Below, piece after piece: positions 4,726 through 54,820 of a stretch of DNA of 64,000 bases. Below the pieces are notes generated by a model. It made no database searches and was not told the origin of the DNA. It saw nothing but the letters and a program-made list of their open reading frames with translations. Location of the stretch: NCBI GenBank assembly GCA_030390025.1, contig CM059432.1, positions 127,720,001-127,784,000 on the forward strand. Reading direction: 5' to 3'. Both the position numbers and the translations under genes were made by a program. The stretch's first letter is position 1; every line of letters starts with the position of its first letter. The stretch is from Squalus acanthias (lineage: Eukaryota).

Positions 4726-6769
4726 AGACTCTGTTCCATAAATAATAACCTAATATTATACTTAATTTGTAAAAAAGGAGAATATGTGACTCTTTTTAGT
4801 CACCAGCAACCAGAAAGAGAGATCTTGGCACAGCTAGATTTAGTAACGATTCTCTCTTCATTAAGCAGACATTTAATACCTTAAAGTGAGATTGCAAGTT
4901 GTGTAAGCAAGAGTGGAGCTCCACTGCATTCACTTTCCAGTTAAGAAAACCATTTAGAAAAATGCTGATGGTGTGTGAGCACACACCGATACAAATGAAC
5001 ATGCTGCAGGATAAAGTTTAGAGCCAGGGGCTGGAACAATAGTGCACATGTAGCAAAATCTACATCATTGTGCTGAATACCTTCAGAAGGTTCCTTTGCC
5101 AATTTTCTCTCCTCCTGACAGCAATGATTCATGCTGGGATACAGTTCCACACAAACACCAGTGTCTCACTTGCCTCTGCAAAGTGGTCATTCGTCATCTA
5201 TGAGCTCATGTAGTAAGTGTTGGCAGACTATTCATCACCATGGTGACCACAGCTGTACTCGAGGCTGTCCTCAAATAGCCACACACCCACACTTTGCAGC
5301 AAGGGTCAATGAATGGCTAGCAATCAGGAGGAGAAACCCTGGGTGACCTTTTATTCTCTACCCCAAGGCCAACTACCACTGCCGCCATAACCAAGGTCAG
5401 CTAACTAAGCCCAGACCAGCATAGTATGGGTTAGCGGTCACTGCTTTTATAAACTTGCCCGCAACGGAAGCTGCTCAAAAACATTCAACTGGAAACAAAG
5501 ATACCAATAAAACACCTCCTCCTGGTAACATACTGAGCAATGCAGTAGATCTGAGAAAACATTGAACTTGCATATTCTAAATGAAAGTTTACATTTAGAG
5601 CTTCTGTAGTCAAATTATTAGCATAACTCAGAATGGTTTTGATCTAATCACCGGATTCAACAAGGAAATTGTCAAGAATGAAATGCTTTTAACTTCACCA
5701 TAACCAATGTATTTTTTGCTACGATCAGAATGACTGAAGGATGACGAAAAGATTTGGGAAAACAGTTTGTTTTAAAAACCCAGTATTTTAAAAGTAAGTG
5801 GTCACACAGGTTTTTTTGAAGTTATTTTATTAAATCAGGCAAGACAGCCCAATGATGTGCCGAAGAGTAGAATGTTGATTATTTTTCTAATATTTACACA
5901 AAGACAAGGGGTACTGATTGAACTGAGTGAGTCTGATCGTAACTATTGCTCGGTGTTATTTTGCTGTGAAAGAAAGCAGCCGAATGGTTCTTATTTGGTC
6001 TAACTTACCAGGTGTTTTCTTGGTCCATCTTCAAAAAGACTGAAGAAGCACACTTGCAAAGGAAATGAGTATAGTTACACCCTTGAGCTACACTGTCGTA
6101 ATTAGATATTGGGCAGCTCAGGCACACTTCTAAACCCAAGATGCTCAGAGCACTTACTGACTGTACTCAAGAGAATATCTAAGTCAAGACCCCGAATTTC
6201 TAACACTGACTGTGAAAGTCAACTCTTTACATTTAAGGCAACAATGAAGAAAGTCAGCACTTCGAGAAAAAATGGATCACTATCCTCTGGACAGTACTAA
6301 AGACAAACTCCATTGACGTCCAGTCAGCATTCCTCTGAAAGATCAAATTCAAATATTATTACAGTAGAACAGTAATAACTTTCACAATGAGCAAGGACTT
6401 GAAAGAGAGTTAGCAATGAACGATGGTCTGAATCAGCTGGAGTGAAAAACAAAATGTTTGCACTGAACAAGAGTCGGGGGGGGGGGGGGGGGAAGAGGAG
6501 GAGGAGGAGAAGAGGACAATAATTAGAGATTTCTAATGAAATGAAAATGAAGTTAGGAATCTTTCCAAATCAGTGCATATAGCCAATGCAGAATGCTTCT
6601 TGACACGCGTTTACAAACAAGAAACCACAAAGAAAGGTGATACTCTTCTATTATTTAGTAGTGACTGAGATGGTGGAAAATTGAGAGCTGGGAAGCACTT
6701 GAGTAACAATGGCCATAAGATCATTAAATTTGATCTAGTGACAAAACAGGAGCAAGAGATAAAATAATC

Positions 6770-8760: not shown

Positions 8761-9964
8761 ATACATAGGAGTGGAATCATTCCAATTACTTCTACCATCA
8801 GACCCATCACCATCAGTGTCTAGTGTTATACAGCTCAAAATGTTCTTCCAGGCACAAATCAAATTTGTAAAGACAAAATATATAATTGTACAGCTGGTGT
8901 CATTCACAGTTCAAGTGCGCTAGAGTATTTCAAAGTCAAAAGGAGCAAATTCTAGCTCTGAACAAAAATTTCACACGCTTCTTACAGTTCACTAAAATCC
9001 CAGTCACAGCATAAAGCCTTGTCCCAATAAGTCCTTCAGAGGATCCCACTGCACCTTTCAATATGGTGCAATTCTCACTCACTTCAGCTTTAGTTTCATA
9101 TGCTTACATCTCATTCTTCAGTCTCGTATGATTCATCAGTCTCTCCTTTTCCTCTCTTCCATCTTCACCCCCACAGTTGCTAAATTCCTATGTAGTAAGG
9201 TCAGTGCAAAGTGCATGCATGTACTTGCTTCTTGAAATGCTCGATAACGGTCACAATTAGTTAAAGGGAAATAATTTGACACTTTTATTAGAAAGACCGA
9301 AGGCGAACTTTTGCAGCGGCATTCAGCTGTGTCAGGACAGACAGATAAGTATTTCATTCTCTAGCAGAAGCTCAATGTTAATATGCCTTTTCTTTAAATT
9401 TTAATGCCTCATTCACCTTAAGTATTTTTTGAAGGATTGTTTGTATTTTAAGTGGCGTAGGGAATACAATCTTCATCCCAACTTCCCCACCACTATTAAA
9501 CTGACAAATTTAATACAACTATTTAATCTGTCCCTTTATCAAGTACTGCCTGGGAAACGGAGTCAGATTGTAGGTGAGTAGGAACATAATCGCCATTATA
9601 TCTTTACCTTGCCCACATTTAGAGTGTTGAAGTAGAAGCTCAATGCATTTTTTTTAGGTTAAAGATTATGTTTTCACGATTTTCGTTCAAGAGATCATAC
9701 TAGGTTTTATCCATAATGCCAAACTAAAGCATGCAGCCCCCTCAATATTTAAAATGTTGGACTGGGAAATGGTTTTTCTAACAGCCAAGGATCTGAAGAC
9801 ACTCAGCTTGATTCAATTGGTACCAAAATAGCATGTTGGCACATGTTAAACTTAAATGAGAAGTCGCACAACACCAGGTTATAGTCCAACAGTTTTATTT
9901 AAAATTATGAGCTTTCGGAGCTCCGCTCCTTCTTCAGGTAAAGGTACAGTGAGGGAATCTATCT

Positions 9965-10504
9965 CTTGCTAAGGCCATCCCCACGCCTCCACTACTCGCC
10001 TTCAAGCAGCCGCCTAACCTCAAAAGTACCATCGTTCGCAGCAAATTACCCAGCTGTCAGGAGAACAACGACCACGACACCACACAACCCTGCCACGGCA
10101 ACCTCTGCAAGACATGCCAGATCATCAACACAGATACCATCATCACACGTGAGGACACTACCCACCAGGTACATGGTACATACTCATGTGACTCGGCCAA
10201 TGTTGTCTACCTCATACGTTGCAGGAAAGAATGCACTGCGGCATGGTACATCGGCGAGACCATGCAGACACTGAGACAACGTATGAACGGACACCGCGCA
10301 ACAATCGCCAGGCAGGATTGTTACCTCCCAGTCGGGGAACACTTCAGCAGTCAAGGACATTCAGCCTCGGATCTGCGGGTTAGCGTTCTCCAAGGCGGCC
10401 TTCGAGACACACGACAACGCAAAATCATCGAGCAGAAACTGATAGCCAAGTTCCGCACCCATGAGGACGGCCTCAATAGGGATCTCGGGTTCATGTCACG
10501 CTAG
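9965..10504 (+). pseudogene. PLE ORF C-terminus: Cys-rich linker plus GIY-YIG endonuclease (open frame, 5'-truncated)
   Basis: Frame reads LAFKQPPNLKSTIVRSKL...CHGNLCKTC...CDSANVVYLIRC...WYIGETMQTLRQRMNGH...GLN with no internal stop. Confidence 0.9.
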
Positions 10505-10755
10505 AGAACGTGACTCGACATCGTTGTCTGTCTTTCCAGTCTTTAAAAAAAATACACCAAAAAAAGGAAAAAAAAAGTTAAAAGCTTAACTGCAGATGGC
10601 AGCATTTGACACGTTGGACCCCGTGACCCACCTCATTGTCTTAGCTGTACTCTGATGTGTCTTTGATGTAATGCCTCCCTAACAGAATGTATCTCTGCAG
10701 ACAAATTGTTCTCTGTGTATATATACCTGAGTAATAGATTCCCTCACTGTACCTC

Positions 10756-10790
10756 TACCTGACGAAGGAGCGGAGCTCCGAAAGCTCGTA
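10756..10790 (+). ncRNA. Minimal type I hammerhead ribozyme motif in the PLE pLTR
   Basis: TAC-CTGACGA-A-GGAGC(GGA)GCTCC-GAAA-GCT-C-GTA: conserved core, 5-bp stem II, palindromic AGCT helix III, TAC/GTA stem I. Confidence 0.75.
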
Positions 10791-11951
10791 ATTTTAAATA
10801 AAACTGTTGGACTATAACCTGGTGTTGTGCGACTTCTCATTTTTGTCCACCCCAGTCCAACACCGGCATCTCCGCATCATGTTAAACTTAAGAATTGGAA
10901 CATTGAGCTGGCTAAATAAAAGTCAACTGGTATGGTACCCTGTGCACAGAGTGTAGTTACCCCTCTTCCCAACCCCACCCCCAAAACCCAAACATACTTT
11001 ACACTACAGTTATCATATATACTTGCAGATAAAGTAACATGTTTAATGACACCATTTAATTGTGCATCGGGCTGGAACCCAAATCAACACTGACCGTTTC
11101 ACAAAGAATTCCTACTCATCCATCTTCAGAGACAAATCGATTTTTCTTGTTTTTAAAATAAAAAGAGCAGCCTTCAATGGCAGAAGCACCCTTACCTTCA
11201 AACCAGAGATTCAAATTTCCCTCATGCTCAGTGGAGTTACCATCGTCTCCCCCTCCCCACCCTCCAACATGGAAGATTTGACGTAGTCTGCTGCAGACTG
11301 GCACTGTGGAGATTGGAGCAGGGAAGGACATACTGAGCTGGCTGGCTCTTTTAGGGTGTGGGGTTGGGAGGGCAGGTGTGGGGTTGGGAGGGCAGGGGCA
11401 GAGGGGGGGGGGGTGGGGGGGAGGGAGAAGGAAGAGGAGGAGCGGGAAGATGGCAGGCTGTGGAAAATTATATTTGCACACAAAGTAATCTCCTAAAATG
11501 CCTGTACTCCTCCCATACAGTTATGCTTGCTTCAAAACAAAAAGGAAACAGGAGGAAGATACTGCTGCTGCGACTGGGAATCATTGCAGTTGCAGGTTGA
11601 CCATTCTACATGCAATGCTGTTTTGAAACAGAGCCCAGCCTCTCAACTATGTCTCAACTTGCAGGCTGGGTCTAAATTGTTATATTACAAACAACTTCAT
11701 TTATGCTTACTGAAAGCTCACATTAGTAAAATTACATAATTTTATCCCATCTCAAATTATCTGTACCAGTTAATGGTGCATTGCATATATACCATTACTC
11801 GGCAGTTTCACAAAGGGCTTCAACACCTTCAACAGACCCCAGCACTACAGAAAGAGTCTTGAAATAAAAAACACTTAGTGGGCAAACAAACGACCTCGGA
11901 GTAATTGATGTCATTGTCTATGAATAAGAGAGAAGTACTCCATTTACTGGA

Positions 11952-12167
11952 CAAAAATGAGAAGTCGCACAATACCAGGTTATAGTCCAACAGTTTTATT
12001 TAAAATTACGAGCTTTCGGAGCTGCTGCCCCTTCGTCAGGTACCTGACTAAGGGGCAGCAGCTCCGAAAGCTCGTAATTTTAAATAAAACTGTTGGACTA
12101 TAACCTGGTGTTGTGCGACTTCTCATTTTTGTCCACCCCAGTCCAACACCGGCATCTCCGCATCATG
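11952..12167 (+). mobile_element. Non-coding palindromic PLE pLTR insertion with two head-to-head hammerhead motifs
   Basis: 188-bp palindrome 11948-12135 centred on GGT|ACC (2 mismatches) plus a 32-nt tail. 13-bp TSD TCCATTTACTGGA at 11939-11951 and 12168-12180. Confidence 0.92.
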
Positions 12168-12450
12168 TCCATTTACTGGAGCAGAGAAGGTTAAAAAAGA
12201 TCTTATAAAGGTGTTATAAAAATAAAAGGGTTTAAAAGGATCATTGGTGAAAGATTATTTCTACTGGCTGAACAAATAGGCATAAATTTAGGATTGGTAC
12301 TGGAGACATAAAGGGGAAGGTCGGATGATATTTTTGCAAGGCTATGGGGAATGAGCAGTGGCGTGGGACTAACTGGATAGCTCTTTCAAAGAGTTGGCAC
12401 AGGCGCAATGGGCCAAATGGCCTCATTCTGTGCTGTAGGATTCTATGTGA
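12168..12450 (+). mobile_element. CR1 LINE 3' end fragment (the palindromic PLE sits at its left edge)
   Basis: TGGAGCAGAGAAGGTTAA... and tail TGGGCCAAATGGCCTCATTCTGTGCTGTA...TTCTATG. Confidence 0.75.
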
Positions 12451-19262: not shown

Positions 19263-20744
19263 CTCTGCCTTCCTAGGCGACTCCCTCCTATGAATAAATC
19301 CAATTACATTTTATTCAAGACTCTCACAGACATATGCACAGAGTTTTGGTTAAGTGCATCGCTTCTATAAAAAAAAGGGTTTTAATTGGCTTCTGTCTCA
19401 TCGGTGAAAAGACGACACTGAATCACGTTTAAAATTATTCTTTATTGCCAAAAGAGTGTTTTTTTTTTACTAAATTGCTAACTAGAAAACCACTCACAGA
19501 TTCTTGAACTTTCTCATTCTTCAGTGATATGCCAGAGAATCCCAGTACTCAAGTCTTCATTTATAATGAATAAACAGATAGCCATGAGCAGAAATGCAGT
19601 AAAGAGAGTTGGGCTGAAGCCTCAGGACAAGGTTCGTTACTTGCAAATGTATAGTTGTGGATGGCGGGCGGGCGGGGGGGGGGGGGGGGGGGGGGGGGAG
19701 GGAGAGAAAGAGGGTGGAAGCGAGTTAAAAAAAAAGCATTCTGTGCTCATCATAGTAAGGCGAGGGATGGCAGACCTGTGAGTGGAACTGTTGCCCCCAT
19801 TTTGGACACTTACTGCCAGCATTGAACTCAGGTCAGGTACAGCATGGCCCAAGACACGGAGCAAGGTCTCCTCGTTCTGAGGGGAAAGATTGCCGAAGGC
19901 AGCATGGCATCTTAAGCTTTTTCAAAAACAAATGATAAATTGTATGCATTTTGGAATGTAAAGCTGGCGCTTTTGCATTTTGCTCAAAGTAAAAATAAGA
20001 CCCAGATATATATATATATATTTTTAAGGTTTTTGCAGTTTTAAACACAAAATATACGACTATTAAACTTCACGAACAGCAACAGCACTGCCACTTTAAT
20101 TACACGGTAGATTTTCAAGTTACAAATGGCCACTTTAAATGCTGATTCTCTGGTCGAAGGACAATTTCTCGCCACTACATTTGCCACCAGTTATGATTTG
20201 GACACATCCACAGCTCCACGTTGCCTCCCTCAGCTCTGACCTTGCAACCACTCTCGTTGGTATCCCGAGACCTGCTGGCTTGTCTGTCGGATGTACATTG
20301 CAGTTCTGCCTGAAAATCTTACGGCTTTCTGACTTATCTCTTCTGTTTGAGGCTGATACAAAGTAACTTGACAGAGAAAACTGCAAAGCTTCGAAATGAC
20401 ACTCTCTTAAGACAGATACAAGTGACAGCAATGCTTGAGAGCGTGATTTTATTCTACTTTCTTTTAAGAATCTGATCAATAGTTATTACGCAAGGTAACT
20501 GGCCAATAGCTTGCAACCTAGGCTGGTTTTGAGGCGGTCAGAGTTCACAAGTGATTAAGAGGCACAAGGTTCAAAAACACCAGCTTGATTCTCCAGAAAT
20601 TAATACGGCTTTAGTTTGAGACAAAGCAAATAACACTAAGTTAAATAGTGGTCATGATGCGGAGATGCCGGTGTTGGACTGGGGTGGACAAAAATGAGAA
20701 GTCGCACAACACCAGGTTATAGTCCAACAGTTTTATTTAAAATT

Positions 20745-20778
20745 ACGAGCTTTCGGAGCTGCTGCCCCTTCGTCAGGT
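20745..20778 (-). ncRNA. Minimal hammerhead motif (left arm of the palindrome)
   Basis: Reverse complement reads AC-CTGACGA-A-GGGGC(AGCA)GCTCC-GAAA-GCT-C-GT. Confidence 0.7.
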
Positions 20779-20790
20779 CAAGGTACCTTG

Positions 20791-20824
20791 ACCTGACGAA
20801 GGGGCAGCAGCTCCGAAAGCTCGT
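20791..20824 (+). ncRNA. Minimal hammerhead motif (right arm of the palindrome)
   Basis: AC-CTGACGA-A-GGGGC(AGCA)GCTCC-GAAA-GCT-C-GT. Confidence 0.7.
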
Positions 20825-21859
20825 AATTTTAAATAAAACTGTTGGACTATAACCTGGTGTTGTGCGACTTCTCATTTAAGTTAAATAGGACAGTTCAGAC
20901 GAGCTTGCATTTCCTGCTGCAGGAATGGATACAAGTATATCTCCATTAAACCCCACGGCTCATCGGTGTTAATTGTGATTACCAAAGAAAACACACAAAT
21001 GCACAAGGGAACAAACTAGGCCACAAACTCGTGCATTCCTGTTGCCTACCCCAGGCTACATCACCTGACTAAAGATTCAATTCAACAACTAAAGCCGCCT
21101 ATAAAACCCCAAAGTTAGCCTCATACGAGCTTGCTGCAATTGTGCTTGCTCAGAGCCTCTCTTAAAATTACCTGATTTTCAGGCGCAGCAGGAAAGAAGT
21201 CATTTTTCTGGTGTTTTATTGCAATTTTGAGGGTTTTTTTTAAAAAAAATCCATCCTCACTGAGACCTGCAGTGTATTTTCTGTTTCGTTTAATGCATTT
21301 TTATGGCAGAGGTCACGTTAAAAATTGAAAAGTTTTCCCGATTGTAAGTTCTTAAACACGTGTGCCTTATGTGCATGACTAATGGTTGAATAAGTGGAAA
21401 GTTAAATTTTCATATTTGGAAAAAATATATGATGCGAGTTGGGTGCTTTCCTTAGGCCCCGATTGTTTATGTCCATTTATGTTCGGGTGTATTCCAATAA
21501 GATTTGCAGGAAATTTGAGCGCAACTTGACATCGGCAGAATGGGGGCATTTCCAGGTCCAACCTCCGGGTTGCGCCCTCGGAGGAAATTCCAGAGCCTCT
21601 ATTGGTTCCAGACAAGCAGCAGCCCATTGGCACGGCCTGGCTGGAGTTCCAAGACTCCTGCCCGGGTGAATGCTCCTCATGTGTGCTTACATAGAGCTCC
21701 TATCACAGCTGTTAACATTTACATTTAGACAGCATGGGCACAGCACTTGAAGTGTCTCAACAATGCTCAGCGTCAGCGAGTAGAGCAAATCAGGTCATTA
21801 AAAAGGTCAATATTGAACCAAAGGGGAGGTAATCCTGCCACTTTATAAATTATTGGTGT

Positions 21860-26514: not shown

Positions 26515-28230
26515 TACCCCAAGGTTCTATCCTTGACCCCCTCCTATTCCTCAGCTACATGTTGCCACCTGGCAACATTATCTGTAGACGTGGGGTCAGC
26601 TTTCACATGAATGCCAACAAAACTCTCTCTCCATCACCACTAACTCTACCGCTACCACTGTGCCATCTGATCACTTGTCCAATGCAAGTCATGGATGCGT
26701 CATAACTTTCTCCAAGCAAGGCCAAAGCTAAAGCCACTTTTTCATTTTCTGCCAAACACTCTGTACCCTCGCCTCCAAATCCAAGGTTGAAACAAAGTGC
26801 ACAAGTTTGGTCCTGTTTGACTTTGAGCTGAGTTTCAAAGCCTATATTCTAACCATCACCAAGACCACTGACTAGTATCTCCACAACACTGCCCACTCCG
26901 CCTTTACTTCACCCACACCACTGCTGGAATCCTTATCCATACTTGCACTAGCTCCAGCCTCCACCTCTCCAATGCTATCCTTGCTCCCAATCTCCACCCT
27001 ACGTAAACTGTCATTTGTACAAAACTGCATTGCTGCATCCTGTCCCACACCAAGTCATAGAAACATAGAAGATAGGAGCGGGAGTAGGCCATTCGGCCCC
27101 TCTAGCCTGCCCCGCCATTCAATGCGATCATGGCTGATCATCCAAATTCAGTACCCTGTCCCTGCTTTCTCCCCACATCCCCCGATCCCCCCAGCCTCAA
27201 GAAACACATCCAACTCCTTCCCGAACACATTTAATGAATTGGCCTCAACCGCCTTCTGTGGTCGAGAATCCACAGGTTCACCACTCTCTGGGTGAAGAAA
27301 TTCCTCCCCATCTCAGTCCCAAATGGCTTACCCCTTATCCTTAGACTGTGATCCCTGGTTCTGGACGCCCTGACCATCGGGAACATCCTTCCTGCATCTA
27401 GTCTGTCCAGTCCTTTCAGAATTTTATAAGTTTCAATGAGATCCCCTCTCATTCTTCTAAACTCCAGCGAGTATAAGCCCAATCGACCCAATCACTCCTC
27501 ATACGTCATTCCTGCCATCCCAGGTATCAGCCTGGTGAATCTTCGCTGAACTCCTTCCATGGCAAGAACATCCTTCCTCAGATAAGGCGACCAAAACTGC
27601 ACACAGAACTCAAGGAGTGGTCTCACCAAGGCCCTGTACAACTGCAGCAAGACAGCCTTGCTCCTGTACTCAAACCCTCTCGCTACAAAGGCCAACATAC
27701 CATTGGGTGTAATGGAAGCAAATTTGTACCAGAACACGCGCATTAAGCCTTGGAGGGTGTAGTGGTAAATATCTAATGCAATGTAGTGGAGGTAATTGCT
27801 CATTTTTTTTTTTGAGGACTTCACATGAGCAATTTTTCATCTTGGTATTTCATCTTGGTCATCACATCAACCACCAGTGGCTCCTCATTCCAGTGCAGTG
27901 AATTCAAAATCCTTGTCCTCATTTAAAAATCCCTCCAGCCTTGCCCCAGTCACTACTGCAACCTTCAGCCCCATGTTCCAGCCTGCAGCGTCTCCAACAC
28001 AACACTTCACCTCTCTCCCCACCACCCCCCATCACGGTTGGTGCCTTCAGCCACCTTTACATTATTCCTTGGAACTCTCCGCCTTACGACCTCCCTCCCC
28101 ACCTTCAAAAGCCTTCTCACACCTTTGGTGACCACCAGTAACTCCTTTGTTACGCTCTACGCAGTATCAGCTTGTTCTGTGCAGATACTGGAGAGGCTCA
28201 CTACATTAAAATGTGTTTTGCTTGTTGCTG
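26515..28230 (+). mobile_element. Degraded L2 LINE split by a CR1 insertion
   Basis: SILxPLLFLxYMLP-like coding at 26520-26610; L2 3' region resumes at ~27850 (CAGTGGCTCC..., GGTGCCTTCAGCC). Confidence 0.65.
27056..27702 (-). mobile_element. CR1 LINE 3' portion
   Basis: ORFs contain NGMLAFVARGFEYRSK...LEFCVQFWSPYLRKD and LGLYSLEFRRMRGDLIETYKIL; CATAGAAACATAGAA tail. Confidence 0.92.
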
Positions 28231-36613: not shown

Positions 36614-37207
36614 AACAGAAAATGCTGGAAAAACTCAGCAGGCCAGGCAGCATCCGTGGAGAGAGAAAGAGAGTTAACGTTTCAGGTCGATGACCTTTCG
36701 TCAGAACTGTGAAGAGCCGGAAATCAAATAGATTTAAGGCCAGAGTAAAGCTGGGAAAAGGGGGAGGAGATAAAAGAACAAAGGGGGAGATGAAGAGACA
36801 TTAAGAGATATGCAAGGCTAGAGGTGGTGTTAATGTGACAGATTAAGGCTGAAAGAAGTGTGAAATCCACTGGCAGAATGAAGGACAGCTGCCAGCTTCT
36901 AGGAGGAAAAAAAAGGTGGGGGGGGCAAATAAAAGGGTGGAAAAAATAAAATATAAATGTGATTGGAGCTGAGGTTATGATCTAAAATTGTTGAACTCGA
37001 TATTGAGTCCAGAGGGCTGTAGCGTGCCTAAACGAAAGATGAGGTGCTGTTCCTCGAGCTTACGCTGCGCTTCCGTGGAACAGTGTAATAGGCCGAGGAC
37101 GGTGAGGTCAGAGTGGGAGTGAAGCGGTGAATTAAAGTGACAGGCCACCGGGAGCTCGGGGTCCCCCTTACGGACTGAACGGAGGTGTTCCGCAAAGCGG
37201 TCACCCA
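36614..37207 (-). mobile_element. 5'-truncated Penelope-like element (second family): GIY-YIG C-terminus and pLTR
   Basis: ORF LGDRFAEHLRSV...PVACHFNS...EQHLIFRLGTLQPSGLN; 17-bp TSD ATTAATATAACTGCAAT at 36597-36613 and 37208-37224. Confidence 0.92.
36672..36708 (-). ncRNA. Minimal type I hammerhead motif
   Basis: Reverse complement reads AGTT-CTGACGA-A-AGGTC(ATC)GACCT-GAAA-CGT-T-AACT. Confidence 0.75.
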
Positions 37208-42479: not shown

Positions 42480-43444
42480 TATGTCTCTACCCAGGGAAAA
42501 ATGGGATATTGCATTTATTTCTCTGTAGGTCTACTGCTTAATGATATTCCGTGTGTCTGGACTTGGTTGAACACAATAAAAGGATTATGTTGCAACCATA
42601 TTTGGTTTGTCAGATTCGAATTGTCTTACAATAAGTATCTATGAATTGTAATCCATAATAAATCCTGACAGGAAGACTGCACACTAAATTAATTAGATTT
42701 TATAGAGTTCAATTTGCTTCAAAGAGACTCCATGGAAATCTTAAGATAACTATACGCTAATTAAAATTTACAATTAGAGATGCATGCCAAAGAAAATTCC
42801 AAGAATTTCAGTTTGTTTTAAAAAAGTAACAAGTGCAAGTTACCAGTAGCTGTTCGCAAAATATTGATCGCAGTCCTCTGATACAACAGATCTACAAACA
42901 ACCACTTCAAGTCCTGCATGGAAGCACAGCCCGAAGATTAGAATTAGGCAGCAATTAAACAAGACGACCAAACAACTTCATCAGGCACTCCGCAGTACAC
43001 CACTAGACAAAAGATTAGCTCATGACGAGGACAAAGTAACCTTACCATACAAACATCAATATAAATCAAACCTACACACAACTCAACATTAACACTGGTT
43101 CATTGGAACCCTGAACAACACGTTTGAGAATACGCCAGCCCCAGTGTAAATATGACAGGGTTGACAGACCATTGATTTCATTCAGTATCAATACATACTT
43201 GAGTGTGCTGTTTTTCCCAAATGGACATTTTTTCTACACAACTTTTAGAAACTACCTCCAAACACAAGACAGCACAAAGCACAGCAACTACATTTTTACT
43301 TTATTATGCTAGCAGACAAGTACAGTCAACTTGGCATCTTATAAATCGTAAAAGGAGACTACGTCTAATGCTCGAGTGAAGAAGGGAAATATCCGTCATG
43401 GTTCCTACTCCTGCACCTAAGTTCCCCACCTGCTGAAAGTGTGC

Positions 43445-45160
43445 ATAGGAACAGGAGTAGGCCATTCAATGCCTCAAGCCTGTTCCGCCATTCAATTAGA
43501 TCATGGCTGATCTGTCGCTCAATTCCATCTACCCACCTTGCTTCCGTAACCCTTCATACCCTTGCCTAACAAAAATCCATCAATCTCAGTTTTGAAATTT
43601 TCAATTGACCGAGCCTCAACAGTTTTTTGGGGTGAGAGTTCCAGATTGCCACTACCCTTTGTGTGAAGAGGTGCTTCCTGACATCACCCCTGAACAGCAT
43701 AGCTCCATTTTAAGGTTATGCCCCCTTGTTCTGAACTCCCCCACCAGAGGAAAGTTTCTCTCCATCTACCCTATCAAATCCTTTAATCATCTTAAGTAAC
43801 TCAATTAGATCACCCTTTAATCTTCTGTACTTAAGGGATTCAAGGGAATACAAGCCCAGTCTATGCTGTAGATGGAATTGAGAGACAGATCAGCCATGAT
43901 CTAATTGAATGGCAGAACAGGCTTGAGGCATTGAATGGCCTTCTCCTGTTCCTATGCACACTTTCATAATTTAGCCCTTTTAGCCCCCGTATCATTCTGG
44001 TGAATCTGCACTGCACACCCTCCAAGGCCAATACATCCTTCCTGAGGTGCGTTGCCCAGAACTAAATGCAGTACTCTAAATGGGGTCTAACCAGAGCACA
44101 ACTATAGCATAACTTCTACCCCTTTGTATTCCAGCCCCCTTGATAAAAGCCAACATTCCATTAGCTTTTAAAATTATTTTTTGTACCTGTCCACTAGATT
44201 TTAGTGATTTCTGTATTTGGACCTCTAAATCTCTCTGCTCCTCCACAGTTCCTAGCTTCTCGCCATTTAGAAAATACTCTGATCTATCTTTCTTAGGTCC
44301 AAAGTGGATGACCTCACACTTCCCCACATTTATTCCTCCATCTAAGTCTTTTGTAAATATAGTGAAAAGCTGAGGCCCCAGTACAGATCCCTGGGGGACA
44401 CCATTAGTCACATTGGTATACATACCCATTATCCCTACTCTGTCTCCTACCTCCTAACCAATTCCCTACCCATGTCAATAGGTTGCCTCTAATTTCTCTC
44501 TCCCACCCTTCTTAAATAATGGAGTAGCATTGGCAATTTTCCACTCCAAGGGGATAATCTCTGAATCAAGAGTTTTATAAGATCATGACTAAAGCACCCT
44601 CAATTTCCTCACTTACTTCTTTTAATAACCTGGAGTGGAATCCTTCCTGTCCTGGTGACATGTCTATCTTTAGTCTCATTATTTTCTCCATTACTTTTTT
44701 ATTTTACGTACATTAAACCTACTAAATTCCTCCTCTTGATTTATTTTTACTTTTACTCATATCTCTGGTACTTTATCCTCATTCTCTACTGTGAAGACCG
44801 ATACAAAGTATGTATTAGCAAGTCTGCCATTTTATTATAGTATTCAATTACAGTAACACCTGCATCTGTCTTTAAGGGGCCCACATTACTCTTAGCCACC
44901 CTCTTTCTCTTAATATACTTGCAAAATCCTTTAGTGTTGTCCTTGACATCACTCGCAAGTTTTTTTCCTCATATTCCCTTTTTGCAGCGCTTACTACTTT
45001 TTGTGTTCCTTTGCTGATCTTTATATCTCTCCCAGTCTGTGGAATCTCACTGTTCTTTGCATTCGGCTAAGCCCCTTTTTTTAGCTATATACTATCCCTC
45101 ACTTCTCTTGTTGACCAAGATGGTTTAATTACACAAGTAGAGCTCGTGCCCTTTAGGGGT
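43445..45160 (-). mobile_element. Degraded CR1 LINE with internal deletions and an inverted duplication
   Basis: ORF GVPQGSVLGPQLFTIF...KCEVIHFG...KANGMLAFI; CR1 tail at the left end. Confidence 0.85.
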
Positions 45161-52195: not shown

Positions 52196-52989
52196 TAATA
52201 AATATTTTCTGCTTTTATTTCAAGCAATCTCAGGTCAGGAATAAGACAGCTTGTTGTGGATCTTTTTGTCTTAGCTTTCACTTTGTACTGTTAGATTTTT
52301 TTTCAACTTCTTACAGCACCCATCACCTTTCTCCCTAAAATTGCCAATTTAGTGCCAAACTGTCAAATTGTTAAGACAATGTGGGCCCAGATCACACCAC
52401 TAGGAGCTGGGTTAAAATTCAATGTCGTTTTATTTATGACCGTTCTAATCAGGAAAGGGAAGGCTTTCAATCCATCTCTTTGAGTTGCACAAAAACCCAA
52501 GTCACAAACTGCTTTTATATTGGTCTACAGGTGTTGCACAGACAGTAGCAACATCAAGATAAACTTACTGATGTCCCAAAATACATTTTTTTTACTGGAT
52601 CTTTCCATCTGCTGCCTGTCTTCCTCGGGTCAGTACGCTGTTCCAGCAGCAGCACATTTTGATATTAGCATCTTGATGCAAGATAATGATACTAACACAC
52701 ATGCATACAGTTATCCTCTGTGCAGCAATGTCATGGCATTGCTACTTCACACACCTGGCAAAATGTCCTGTCTAGTCTGTGCCTGTATGTGATAGCAAGC
52801 CTTACAGTGTAACCAGTTTACAGGAAGACTAGATGTGCCAACTATAATTAAATGCTGCAAAGCAGTGCAATTAGCCGGCTCTATCAACACCTGAGTTGAG
52901 CTATAAAAGCAACTACAAAGGTGAAAGATCAGTATGCTAACACACTGCACCATGCAGTCCTCAACTGCAGCATTGCTACTTTTACATTG

Positions 52990-53730
52990 CCACGGCAACC
53001 TCTGCAAGACATGCCAAATCATGGACACAGATACCATCATTACACGTGAGGACACTACCCACCAGGTACACGGTACATACTCATGTGACTCGGCCAACGT
53101 TGTCTACCTGATACGTTGCAGTAAAGGATGCTCCAGAGCATGGTACATCGGCGAGACCATGCAGACACTGAGACAACGTATGAACGGACACCGCGCAACA
53201 ATCGCCAGGCAGGAGGGTTGCCTCCCAGTCGGGGAACACTTCAGCAGCCAGGGGCATTCAGCCTCGGATCTGCGGGTAAGCGTTCTCCAAGGCGGCCTTC
53301 GAGATACACGACAGCGCAAAATCATAGAGCAGAAACTGATAGCCAAGTTCCGCACTCATGAATATGGCCTCAATCGCGATATCGGGTTCATGTCACGATA
53401 CAGAACGTGACTTGACATCATGGCCGGTCTTCCCAGGTGTTTTTTTTTTGTTTTTTTTTTTTGTTTTTTTTTAAAAACACAAGAACACAAATTGACAGGA
53501 TATGCAGCCAGCAGGTGGTTTGACACGCTGGACCCCCTGGGACACATCTCATTGTCTTGGCTGTGCTCTTTGTTGTAGCGAATAATGTGAATAGATTTTG
53601 TCTGGGTTTAAATTGTGAATTCTGGGAGATTCTCTCATTGCTAACTTACCTGACGAAGGAGCGATAGCTCCGAAAGCTTGTAAAATTAAATAAATCTGTT
53701 GGACTATAACCTGGTGTTGTGCGACTTCTC
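52990..53730 (+). mobile_element. 5'-truncated Neptune-type PLE (same family as 9854-10881)
   Basis: GIY-YIG frame CHGNLCKTC...NVVYLIRC...WYIGET ending at 53410; pLTR; 12-bp TSD ACTTTTACATTG at 52978-52989 and 53731-53742. Confidence 0.93.
53646..53683 (+). ncRNA. Minimal hammerhead motif
   Basis: TTAC-CTGACGA-A-GGAGC(GATA)GCTCC-GAAA-GCT-T-GTAA. Confidence 0.75.
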
Positions 53731-54820
53731 ACTTTTACATTGATTAACACAGTAGCTTTTACAACTGCAGCAGAATGCATGCATGTGGTTCCATTCATAT
53801 ACTATATACCCCTAAAAGGCACATGCTTGATGACCTCTATGTTTTCTATGTGTATGCATGGTATATCTGCTTATGCATATGCACAATAGTTTATGTTGAC
53901 CTTTATTGTCAAGAGATATTACAGCCCCTGGTCTGTCAATAACCCACTCAGTTCTGCTTCCCACTAGATTAGCTGGAGTGGTAGATGATAATGAAAGTGG
54001 GCAGGGATGCACATTTAGTCTGGTCCATAGAGATAATATTTAATGACTGGAGGGTAAACATATCCTACAAACCCATTAGCTCAAACTATCCTGGGTTATC
54101 AGTGACTGCAGTATGCAAGATACTGGAAGCAGTTCCACAACGTTGTGAGGCTGCTGCTCTGAATTCATCCTCATTATGTTGCAAGCATAATTCAGGGCAC
54201 GAATGGCAACATTTAAGTAACACTGCATAGGCAAAAGTTGTAATAGTGACTTTAAAACAATTCCATGTCCACAAAATTCCAAGTCACATTCATGACTTTA
54301 AGTTCCTGCTTGTAACTTCCCAATGTCAAAGGAAGGTCCACACAGGCCAGCAATGATTATTTTTGTAATCCCTACACTGTTGAGTTCTGTTGTGCAAGTG
54401 TGCAATACAATGTTGCCCATTTCCACAAAAAAGATAGGCAAGATCCCAGGGATATTATTGTGCTTCAAAAAAACAATGTGGCTCCAAATTTGAGAGGGAA
54501 ACTGCAAAGGAGGTTGACCAGATGACACCTCAGTGATTCCTCCTTGGTGATTTGAAATGATTCTCTTAGATTCAGGACTCCTTCCTTGGTTTTTTTCCTC
54601 CCACAAAAGCCCAAGTCACAAACTGCTTTTAAATTGGTCTTTAGCCACTGGCTTTCTTGGCATGGGCCAGCTGGTGGCAATATCTAGAAAAACTTGTTGG
54701 GTTTTTTTCAATGGATCAAAAAAAAATATTTTAAATGGGCCTTTAGAATTGCTGCCTGTCTTCCCAGGACCGTTCCAATGCCAGCATCACATTTTAGTAG
54801 TGGTGTCATAATGCAACATC

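Follow-up and report, generated by a model that had tools for sequence, protein, structure and literature searches.

For insertions of EN+ Penelope-like elements (PLEs), a layout has been published in which an inverted arm and a one-sided tail lie within a TSD (PMC8557442, legend of Fig. 2; PMC3846280). In the sections of PMC3846280 cited here, Pen2a_Av and other EN+ PLEs carry an inverted, 5'-truncated, tail-less pseudo-LTR (pLTR) beside a tail-bearing pLTR, with a TSD, a palindromic junction, and TATA and TCACT motifs; rotifer pLTRs are described there as having an Inr-like TCACT word as well as a TATA box. For PAc, a Poseidon-type PLE of Anolis, the cited portion of PMC11167929 describes two adjacent internal RT start sites that bound the tail, a protein that cuts and extends both target strands and is predicted to dimerize, and uncleaved RNA as the main template. 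Metazoan PLEs also encode hammerheads with a conserved core, an extra base after A9, a palindromic word for helix III, and a short covarying helix I, and opposite-strand pairs of minimal hammerheads 100-700 bp apart are known among them (PMC4209133, in the part cited). Non-LTR retrozymes, as outlined in bioRxiv 10.64898/2026.07.22.740005, are short, non-coding, PLE-derived, head-to-tail tandem repeats with a type I hammerhead.

We analysed a stretch of 64,000 nucleotides from the shark Squalus acanthias (GCA_030390025.1, contig CM059432.1, positions 127,720,001 to 127,784,000), hereafter the window, which contains a palindromic insertion with the same parts as Pen2a_Av and the other EN+ PLEs of PMC3846280 (Table 1). 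Unlike the insertions described in those sections, it is without any body, and both of its arms halt at the predicted transcription start. The preliminary description had reported a TSD-flanked, spacerless, perfect 186-bp palindrome, and this is confirmed: two 93-nt arms with 100% complementarity and no spacer meet at 20784/20785 between 12-bp copies of TAAGTTAAATAG, the right one overlapping the arm by one base. The start had been placed at 20653, which is 4 nt too late, because 20649-20652 agree with the tail ends of other copies; the tail is one-sided as described, but at 43 nt it is longer than the 39 nt given for it and slightly above the quoted 30-40 bp range. The hairpin is far more stable than shuffled sequences (z = -27.8, 0/200 shuffles as stable), as expected of any perfect palindrome. 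The insertion is apparently young, and both its class and its layout are known.

Table 1. Positions of the palindrome insertion, its parts, and related insertions within the window
Feature	Position	Strand	Remarks
Left TSD	20637..20648	+	12 bp
PLE tail	20649..20691	-	43 nt, single side; outer end is the putative distal RT start site; tail concept as in the cited parts of PMC8557442 and PMC11167929
Tail-bearing pLTR arm	20692..20784	-	Sense on minus strand; starts 8 nt before the hammerhead core
Tail-less pLTR arm	20785..20877	+	Sense on plus strand; ends at the pLTR/tail border
Self-complementary centre	20782..20787	.	A at 20785 is position TATA+30 in L112, the predicted transcription start
Right TSD	20877..20888	+	12 bp
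Minimal type I hammerhead	20793..20822	+	Core, 5-bp stem II, palindromic AGCU replacing stem III; G at 20790 disrupts stem I; cut predicted after 20822
Mirror minimal hammerhead	20747..20776	-	Predicted cut between 20747 and 20746; equal stem I defect at 20779
Bodied insertion	9842..10891	+	14-bp TSD; inverted tail-less arm 9854-9962, GIY-YIG piece 9965-10510, pLTR and tail to 10881
Lone tail-less arm with GIY-YIG piece	52978..53742	+	99% aa identity to the L071 ORF; 12-bp TSDs
Second two-armed stub	11939..12180	+	13-bp TSD (11939-11951, 12168-12180); core mutated on the plus strand; centre (12041/12042) 2 nt ahead of the core

The preliminary attribution of the arms to a PLE's pLTR bearing a minimal type I hammerhead is supported by their sequence neighbours. 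The same pLTR lies downstream of GIY-YIG coding sequence at 9965-10881 and 52988-53736 in the window, and in a further copy (L071) it follows a 674-aa RT-linker-GIY-YIG frame with an RVT_1 match, a VY...YIG motif, and homologs containing PF01541; the closest proteins to this frame among the search matches are from sharks. The frame also includes a CX4CX2C linker, which agrees with the Neptune-type proteins suggested earlier, although a CX2-5CxxC linker between RT and EN is common to Neptune and Nematis (PMC8557442, in the part cited). This Neptune/Nematis type of protein differs from the Poseidon-type PAc of PMC11167929. A 29-mer spanning the arm-tail border has 25,724 exact copies genome-wide, and, judged by sequence, the arm and tail of the palindrome insertion represent the 3' end, the pLTR, of an abundant PLE encoding RT and GIY-YIG. 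An RT ORF with C-terminal GIY-YIG, an adjacent inverted 5'-truncated copy, a one-sided tail, and a TSD, the defining features of EN+ PLE insertions, are all present.

Three relatives in the window place the palindrome insertion in context. The bodied insertion combines the same parts with a 0.8-kb body, which makes the palindrome insertion the zero-body end of a series; its two arms (9854-9962 and 10734-10842) differ at three sites, N7 of the core included (A vs C). The insertion at 52978-53742 indicates that a tail-less arm is able to insert alone. The third relative, a copy at 11948-12171 centred 8,743 nt from the centre of the palindrome insertion, had been proposed as a second insertion of the same architecture. 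The layout is indeed the same, but the cores are not both intact, the plus-strand core reading CTGACTA. A common GGTACC centre had also been proposed; the two centres are 6 nt apart in pLTR coordinates (2 vs 8 nt before the core), and GGTACC occurs at both by coincidence, owing to a short repeat in the pLTR upstream of the ribozyme. Elsewhere in the window, a 99-nt inverted repeat (43434-43532 and 43868-43966, 97% complementary, 335 nt apart) belongs to a different repeat family, with more copies at 27072 and 59317.

For population comparisons we took the first 100 of the 25,724 junction copies, chosen blind to the 5' side and located in the first 11.9 Mb of one contig. An adjacent inverted arm beginning at the tail border is present in 66/100, and the remaining 34, which are single-armed, long, or rearranged, are excluded from two-arm counts. 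Among the two-armed copies, 57/66 have a TSD of 10-16 bp, mostly 12-14.

We assign a probability of about 0.7 to the following reading: the palindrome insertion is a pLTR insertion of an RT + GIY-YIG PLE, likely made afresh, in which both nicks primed reverse transcription on the RNA leader and the cDNAs likely ran off the capped 5' end and were joined head to head. Both nicked target strands would prime reverse transcription on the leader of a PLE RNA presumably beginning 30 nt below a TATA box, with one primer starting where the tail ends and the other where it begins. Each cDNA would then run off the capped RNA start just upstream of the ribozyme, and the two ends would join head to head through the 2-nt TA overlap of GTAC, while nicks staggered by 12 nt would give rise to the TSD. 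One start per side matches the two RT start sites of the anole PLE in vitro (PMC11167929, in the part cited). The systems differ in that the start sites of PAc do not vary by strand in vitro, according to that part, whereas nearly all shark two-armed insertions have one start of each kind. A broader proposal, to which we give somewhat less than an even chance, is that PLEs integrate through both target strands: a dimeric RT-endonuclease would prime both nicks, one at each of the start sites that bound the tail, and could hold two RNAs, possibly paired via the stem III palindrome. The thousands of palindromes of about 212 nt would then be paired strong-stop copies of the capped leader, mapping the start site and recording RNA pairing in the germline.

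L1 twin priming involves two cDNAs, one primed from each target strand, that copy different parts of a single RNA. The shark insertions resemble that process (named in the cited part of PMC4859970) in that both target strands would prime cDNA and the inversion lies inside the TSD. They differ from it in that the PLE arms copy the same stretch, sometimes from different RNA molecules.

Comparison of the two arms within loci bears on how many templates are involved. Arms of the same locus differ at a mean of 1.7 positions, vs 6.5 for random pairs (46 loci), so the two arms usually have a common source, and a single template generally suffices. Nevertheless, two different common loop II haplotypes are combined in 9/42 classifiable loci (the 46 minus four unclassifiable ones), whose arms belong to different subfamilies; discordance is commoner in short stubs (7/18) than in long ones (2/24, p = 0.025). 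One arm always carries the commonest loop II haplotype in the discordant loci (9/9; L044, L062, L077, L094, L096, L105, L110, L125, L129), as if one highly expressed source gave partner RNAs in trans. The two arms fall in the same length class, short or long, in 62/66 copies (p = 2e-12), and the lengths correlate even among the long copies of L031-L130 (Spearman 0.58, n = 19), suggesting coupled synthesis or a common template end. The possibility that one arm derives from the 5' pLTR and the other from the 3' pLTR of one mRNA was rejected because it predicts short-long pairs, and only 4/66 are mixed.

The main alternative is self-copying by a single cDNA that folds at the self-complementary GTAC, the unit being resolved at the tail border, a scheme close to the self-priming by which PMC3846280, in the section cited, explains junction palindromes. 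We consider it unlikely as the general route, though several features of the palindrome insertion suit it: perfect symmetry, a self-complementary word at the centre, and, in both arms, a rare G at -3 (numbered relative to the core), whose pattern occurs at only 12 sites genome-wide with no matching source among the 20 sites listed, and which folding back explains equally well. Likewise, both of the spacerless symmetric centres found among the 66 copies by the criterion used sit on self-complementary words. A single folded cDNA, however, cannot yield tail-less arms that exceed their partners, yet 29/66 copies have a longer tail-less arm and 11/66 a shorter one; nor can it yield arms of differing haplotype, untemplated, asymmetric junctions, or the lone tail-less insertion at 52988. 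These longer tail-less arms, the 9/42 discordant loci, and the lone tail-less insertion, together with cap-like G starts, which are also possible on the tail-less arm, favour two primings over folding back of one cDNA. Folding back could hold for the perfect minority, the palindrome insertion included. Across the population, the statistics of the junctions speak for double priming on a sense, capped RNA rather than for the self-priming on an antisense template proposed in PMC3846280 (in the section cited).

Double priming on a capped leader is also consistent with where the arms end. Of 70 at-risk sense arms, 26 end within -11 to 0, a rate of 3.1% per nt, vs 0.28% for +12 to +75 and 0.36% for -100 to -36. 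This peak of 5' ends, about tenfold and with its mode at A-7, lies just upstream of the ribozyme and across it from the RT's entry side, in agreement with the earlier view that the centres are not random truncation points. The TATA motif in long copies of the main subfamily begins 30 nt before A-7, which falls within an Inr-like TCACTTC. L112, the long copy nearest to the palindrome insertion upstream of the core, has TATA+30 at A-8, the start of both arms of the insertion, and we infer that transcription starts 30 nt below the TATA box. TATA+30 in other subfamilies points to -11 to -14, yet the ends there are scattered. A 3' splice site was rejected as an explanation of the clustering, since AG is absent from this position in the main subfamily. 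An initial BLAST sample in which most arms started at G-ACC reflected query bias, with 0/30 loci of that kind in a later set.

Additional evidence for copying of the capped start comes from the letter adjoining it in the main subfamily. The letter before A-7 is non-native, other than C, at 5,033 sites genome-wide, and the first 100 listed comprise 53 G, 14 A, and 33 T; the ratio of G to A has p about 3e-10 against a rough null of 5.5:8. Thirty of these sites were examined: 19/19 with G are junctions, while 5/6 with T have native upstream sequence. At seven of the 19 G loci the partner arm cannot supply the G, and a T precedes it in 7/7. For L1 and SVA, untemplated G is accepted as the mark of cap copying (PMC4859970), and +CAA is the main addition by MMLV RT on capped RNA (PMC6885630), both as given in the cited parts, and a G with preceding T fits cap copying followed by addition of A. 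In the subfamily of the palindrome insertion, G is not clearly in excess at A-8 (19 G and 12 A among the first 100 of 302 sites), where C is largely a native variant, and a cap G is absent from the centre of the insertion itself. At -3, G occurs at 633 sites vs A at 365, with the excess absent among junctions to plain flanking DNA. The G at -3 of the palindrome insertion could be a private template change, or else a cap copy at a minor start, A-2, with TTG as a +CAA addition. Cap copying combined with retrovirus-like strand transfer, leaving G at the start inside long arms, was rejected, as the G:A ratios are only 12:8, 4:2, and 2:5 and two of the 12 G sites are the arms of the palindrome insertion.

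These observations make it very unlikely that the population arose by random 5' truncation and inversion, with the cluster caused by microhomology or a structure-induced stop. Arm ends do occur throughout the pLTR and body, and microhomology is used at many junctions; microhomologies of stem I, GAAG, and their complements add to the cluster, and the neighbouring -6 has 2,860 sites. Such a process does not account for a peak of this height beyond the ribozyme from RT entry, for its match to TATA+30, for the preference for G over A, or for the coupling of arm lengths.

The claim that the palindrome encodes a ribozyme on each strand holds for the cores but, by prediction, not for a working fold. 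CTGACGA...GAAA cores lie at 20793-20818 (+) and 20776-20751 (-), and each motif has the CUGANGA/GAAA core, stem II, palindromic 15.2-16.2, and NUH site of minimal type I hammerheads, with C17 on both strands. The usual helix I of 4-5 bp is lacking; its positions are C-G, A-U, a G-A mismatch, and U-A, the mismatch resulting from the rare G at -3. Across the PLE family the affected third pair covaries (C-G in 36 and U-A in 40 of 94 arms), and the family motif, by this comparative sequence evidence, is a conserved minimal hammerhead with C-G or U-A at the third stem I pair and a self-complementary AGCU in place of stem III. It thus resembles the metazoan PLE hammerheads of PMC4209133; unlike the opposite-strand pairs in the cited part of that work, the motifs here abut in perfect symmetry and have a mismatched helix I.

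Read-through transcripts of either strand reach the antisense arm before the ribozyme. Folding predictions give a probability of stem II that rounds to 0 for every transcript prefix on both strands and a full hairpin at -177.6 kcal/mol, and both hammerheads are predicted to be sequestered within that hairpin and unable to fold. Monomer and cofold predictions show no hammerhead fold apart from stem II. Rfam profiles run on the insertion do not match a hammerhead; the mir-1597 profile matches the hairpin only, at 47 bits vs a gathering score of 93. Because the antisense arm comes first in transcripts and stem II is predicted not to form, the ambisense layout is best modelled as a by-product of symmetry, not as design. 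An ambisense viroid-like RNA was rejected on the same predictions, which do not give cotranscriptional folding of both ribozymes. The predicted 91-bp hairpin of the read-through transcript, together with the lack of an upstream TATA box, makes the stub a probable dead end. Arms starting at the cut site hint weakly at cleavage of some templates in vivo, with about 310-450 junctions there (616 x 15-22/30) vs about 150 (258 x 17/30) at a single control with different letters, a ~2-3-fold difference. Another minimal hammerhead-like motif, at 36675-36704 (-), is unrelated in sequence, with CTGACGA, its own stem II, and GAAA followed by a palindromic word, and probably belongs to another PLE family.

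Less probable still than random truncation is the proposal of the preliminary description, a hairpin retroelement that is non-autonomous, propagates itself, and encodes a functional ribozyme on either strand. In line with it, about 21% of sampled copies have two complete cores, with a modal length near 212 nt, and some junction types recur. If the palindrome were copied as a unit, many copies would share one junction with linked derived changes, and this is not what is found. A 22-mer spanning the centre has no second match genome-wide with one mismatch allowed, and in the 21 sampled copies with both arms ending within -12 to +1 of the core, 21/21 junctions are distinct. Recurring junction types have the tail on either arm and differing loop II haplotypes, and nested re-copied units amount to 1/100. 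Together with the predicted sequestration of the ribozymes, the broken stem I, the lack of a tandem array, and the frequency of arms from different subfamilies, this largely refutes the proposal. Retrozyme identity is rejected as well: the palindrome insertion is short, non-coding, and PLE-derived with a type I hammerhead, like the retrozymes of bioRxiv 10.64898/2026.07.22.740005, but those are described as head-to-tail tandem repeats, whereas here a head-to-head pair lies within one TSD and has unique junctions. The preliminary description had suggested tabulating centres to distinguish a clonal family from scattered truncations. Both alternatives miss what the tabulation of 100 copies shows: centres clustered at the likely transcription start, with every junction newly formed.

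Read artefacts can create perfect spacerless palindromes of this form, but an assembly or sequencing artefact (a fold-back read) is hardly credible here, given that the 12-bp TSD is clean, that the tail lies on one side only, and that many copies whose arms are not identical share the layout.

The palindrome insertion is one ordinary stub among an estimated at least 5,000 (21% of 25,724, extrapolated from one contig end); what is of value is not the single object but the evidence that the population gives for double priming and a mapped start site. This stub population bears on the origin of the inverted pLTR and one-sided tail of PLEs, and double priming makes direct predictions that the in vitro PLE system already available can address. 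Intronic hairpins of 90 bp, which number in the thousands, could also supply double-stranded RNA. Among the papers listed in our searches of mainly open-access main texts, we found no shark PLE palindromes, no use of the term 'twin priming' in PLE papers, and no population evidence for double priming with a mapped start site.

Rare variants of the layout also occur: L026 bears a tail on each arm, and L095 has two inverted ends. The flanks of L031-L130 show that many targets fall within other retroelements, and similar A/T-rich words are repeated among several TSDs, a hint of target preference.
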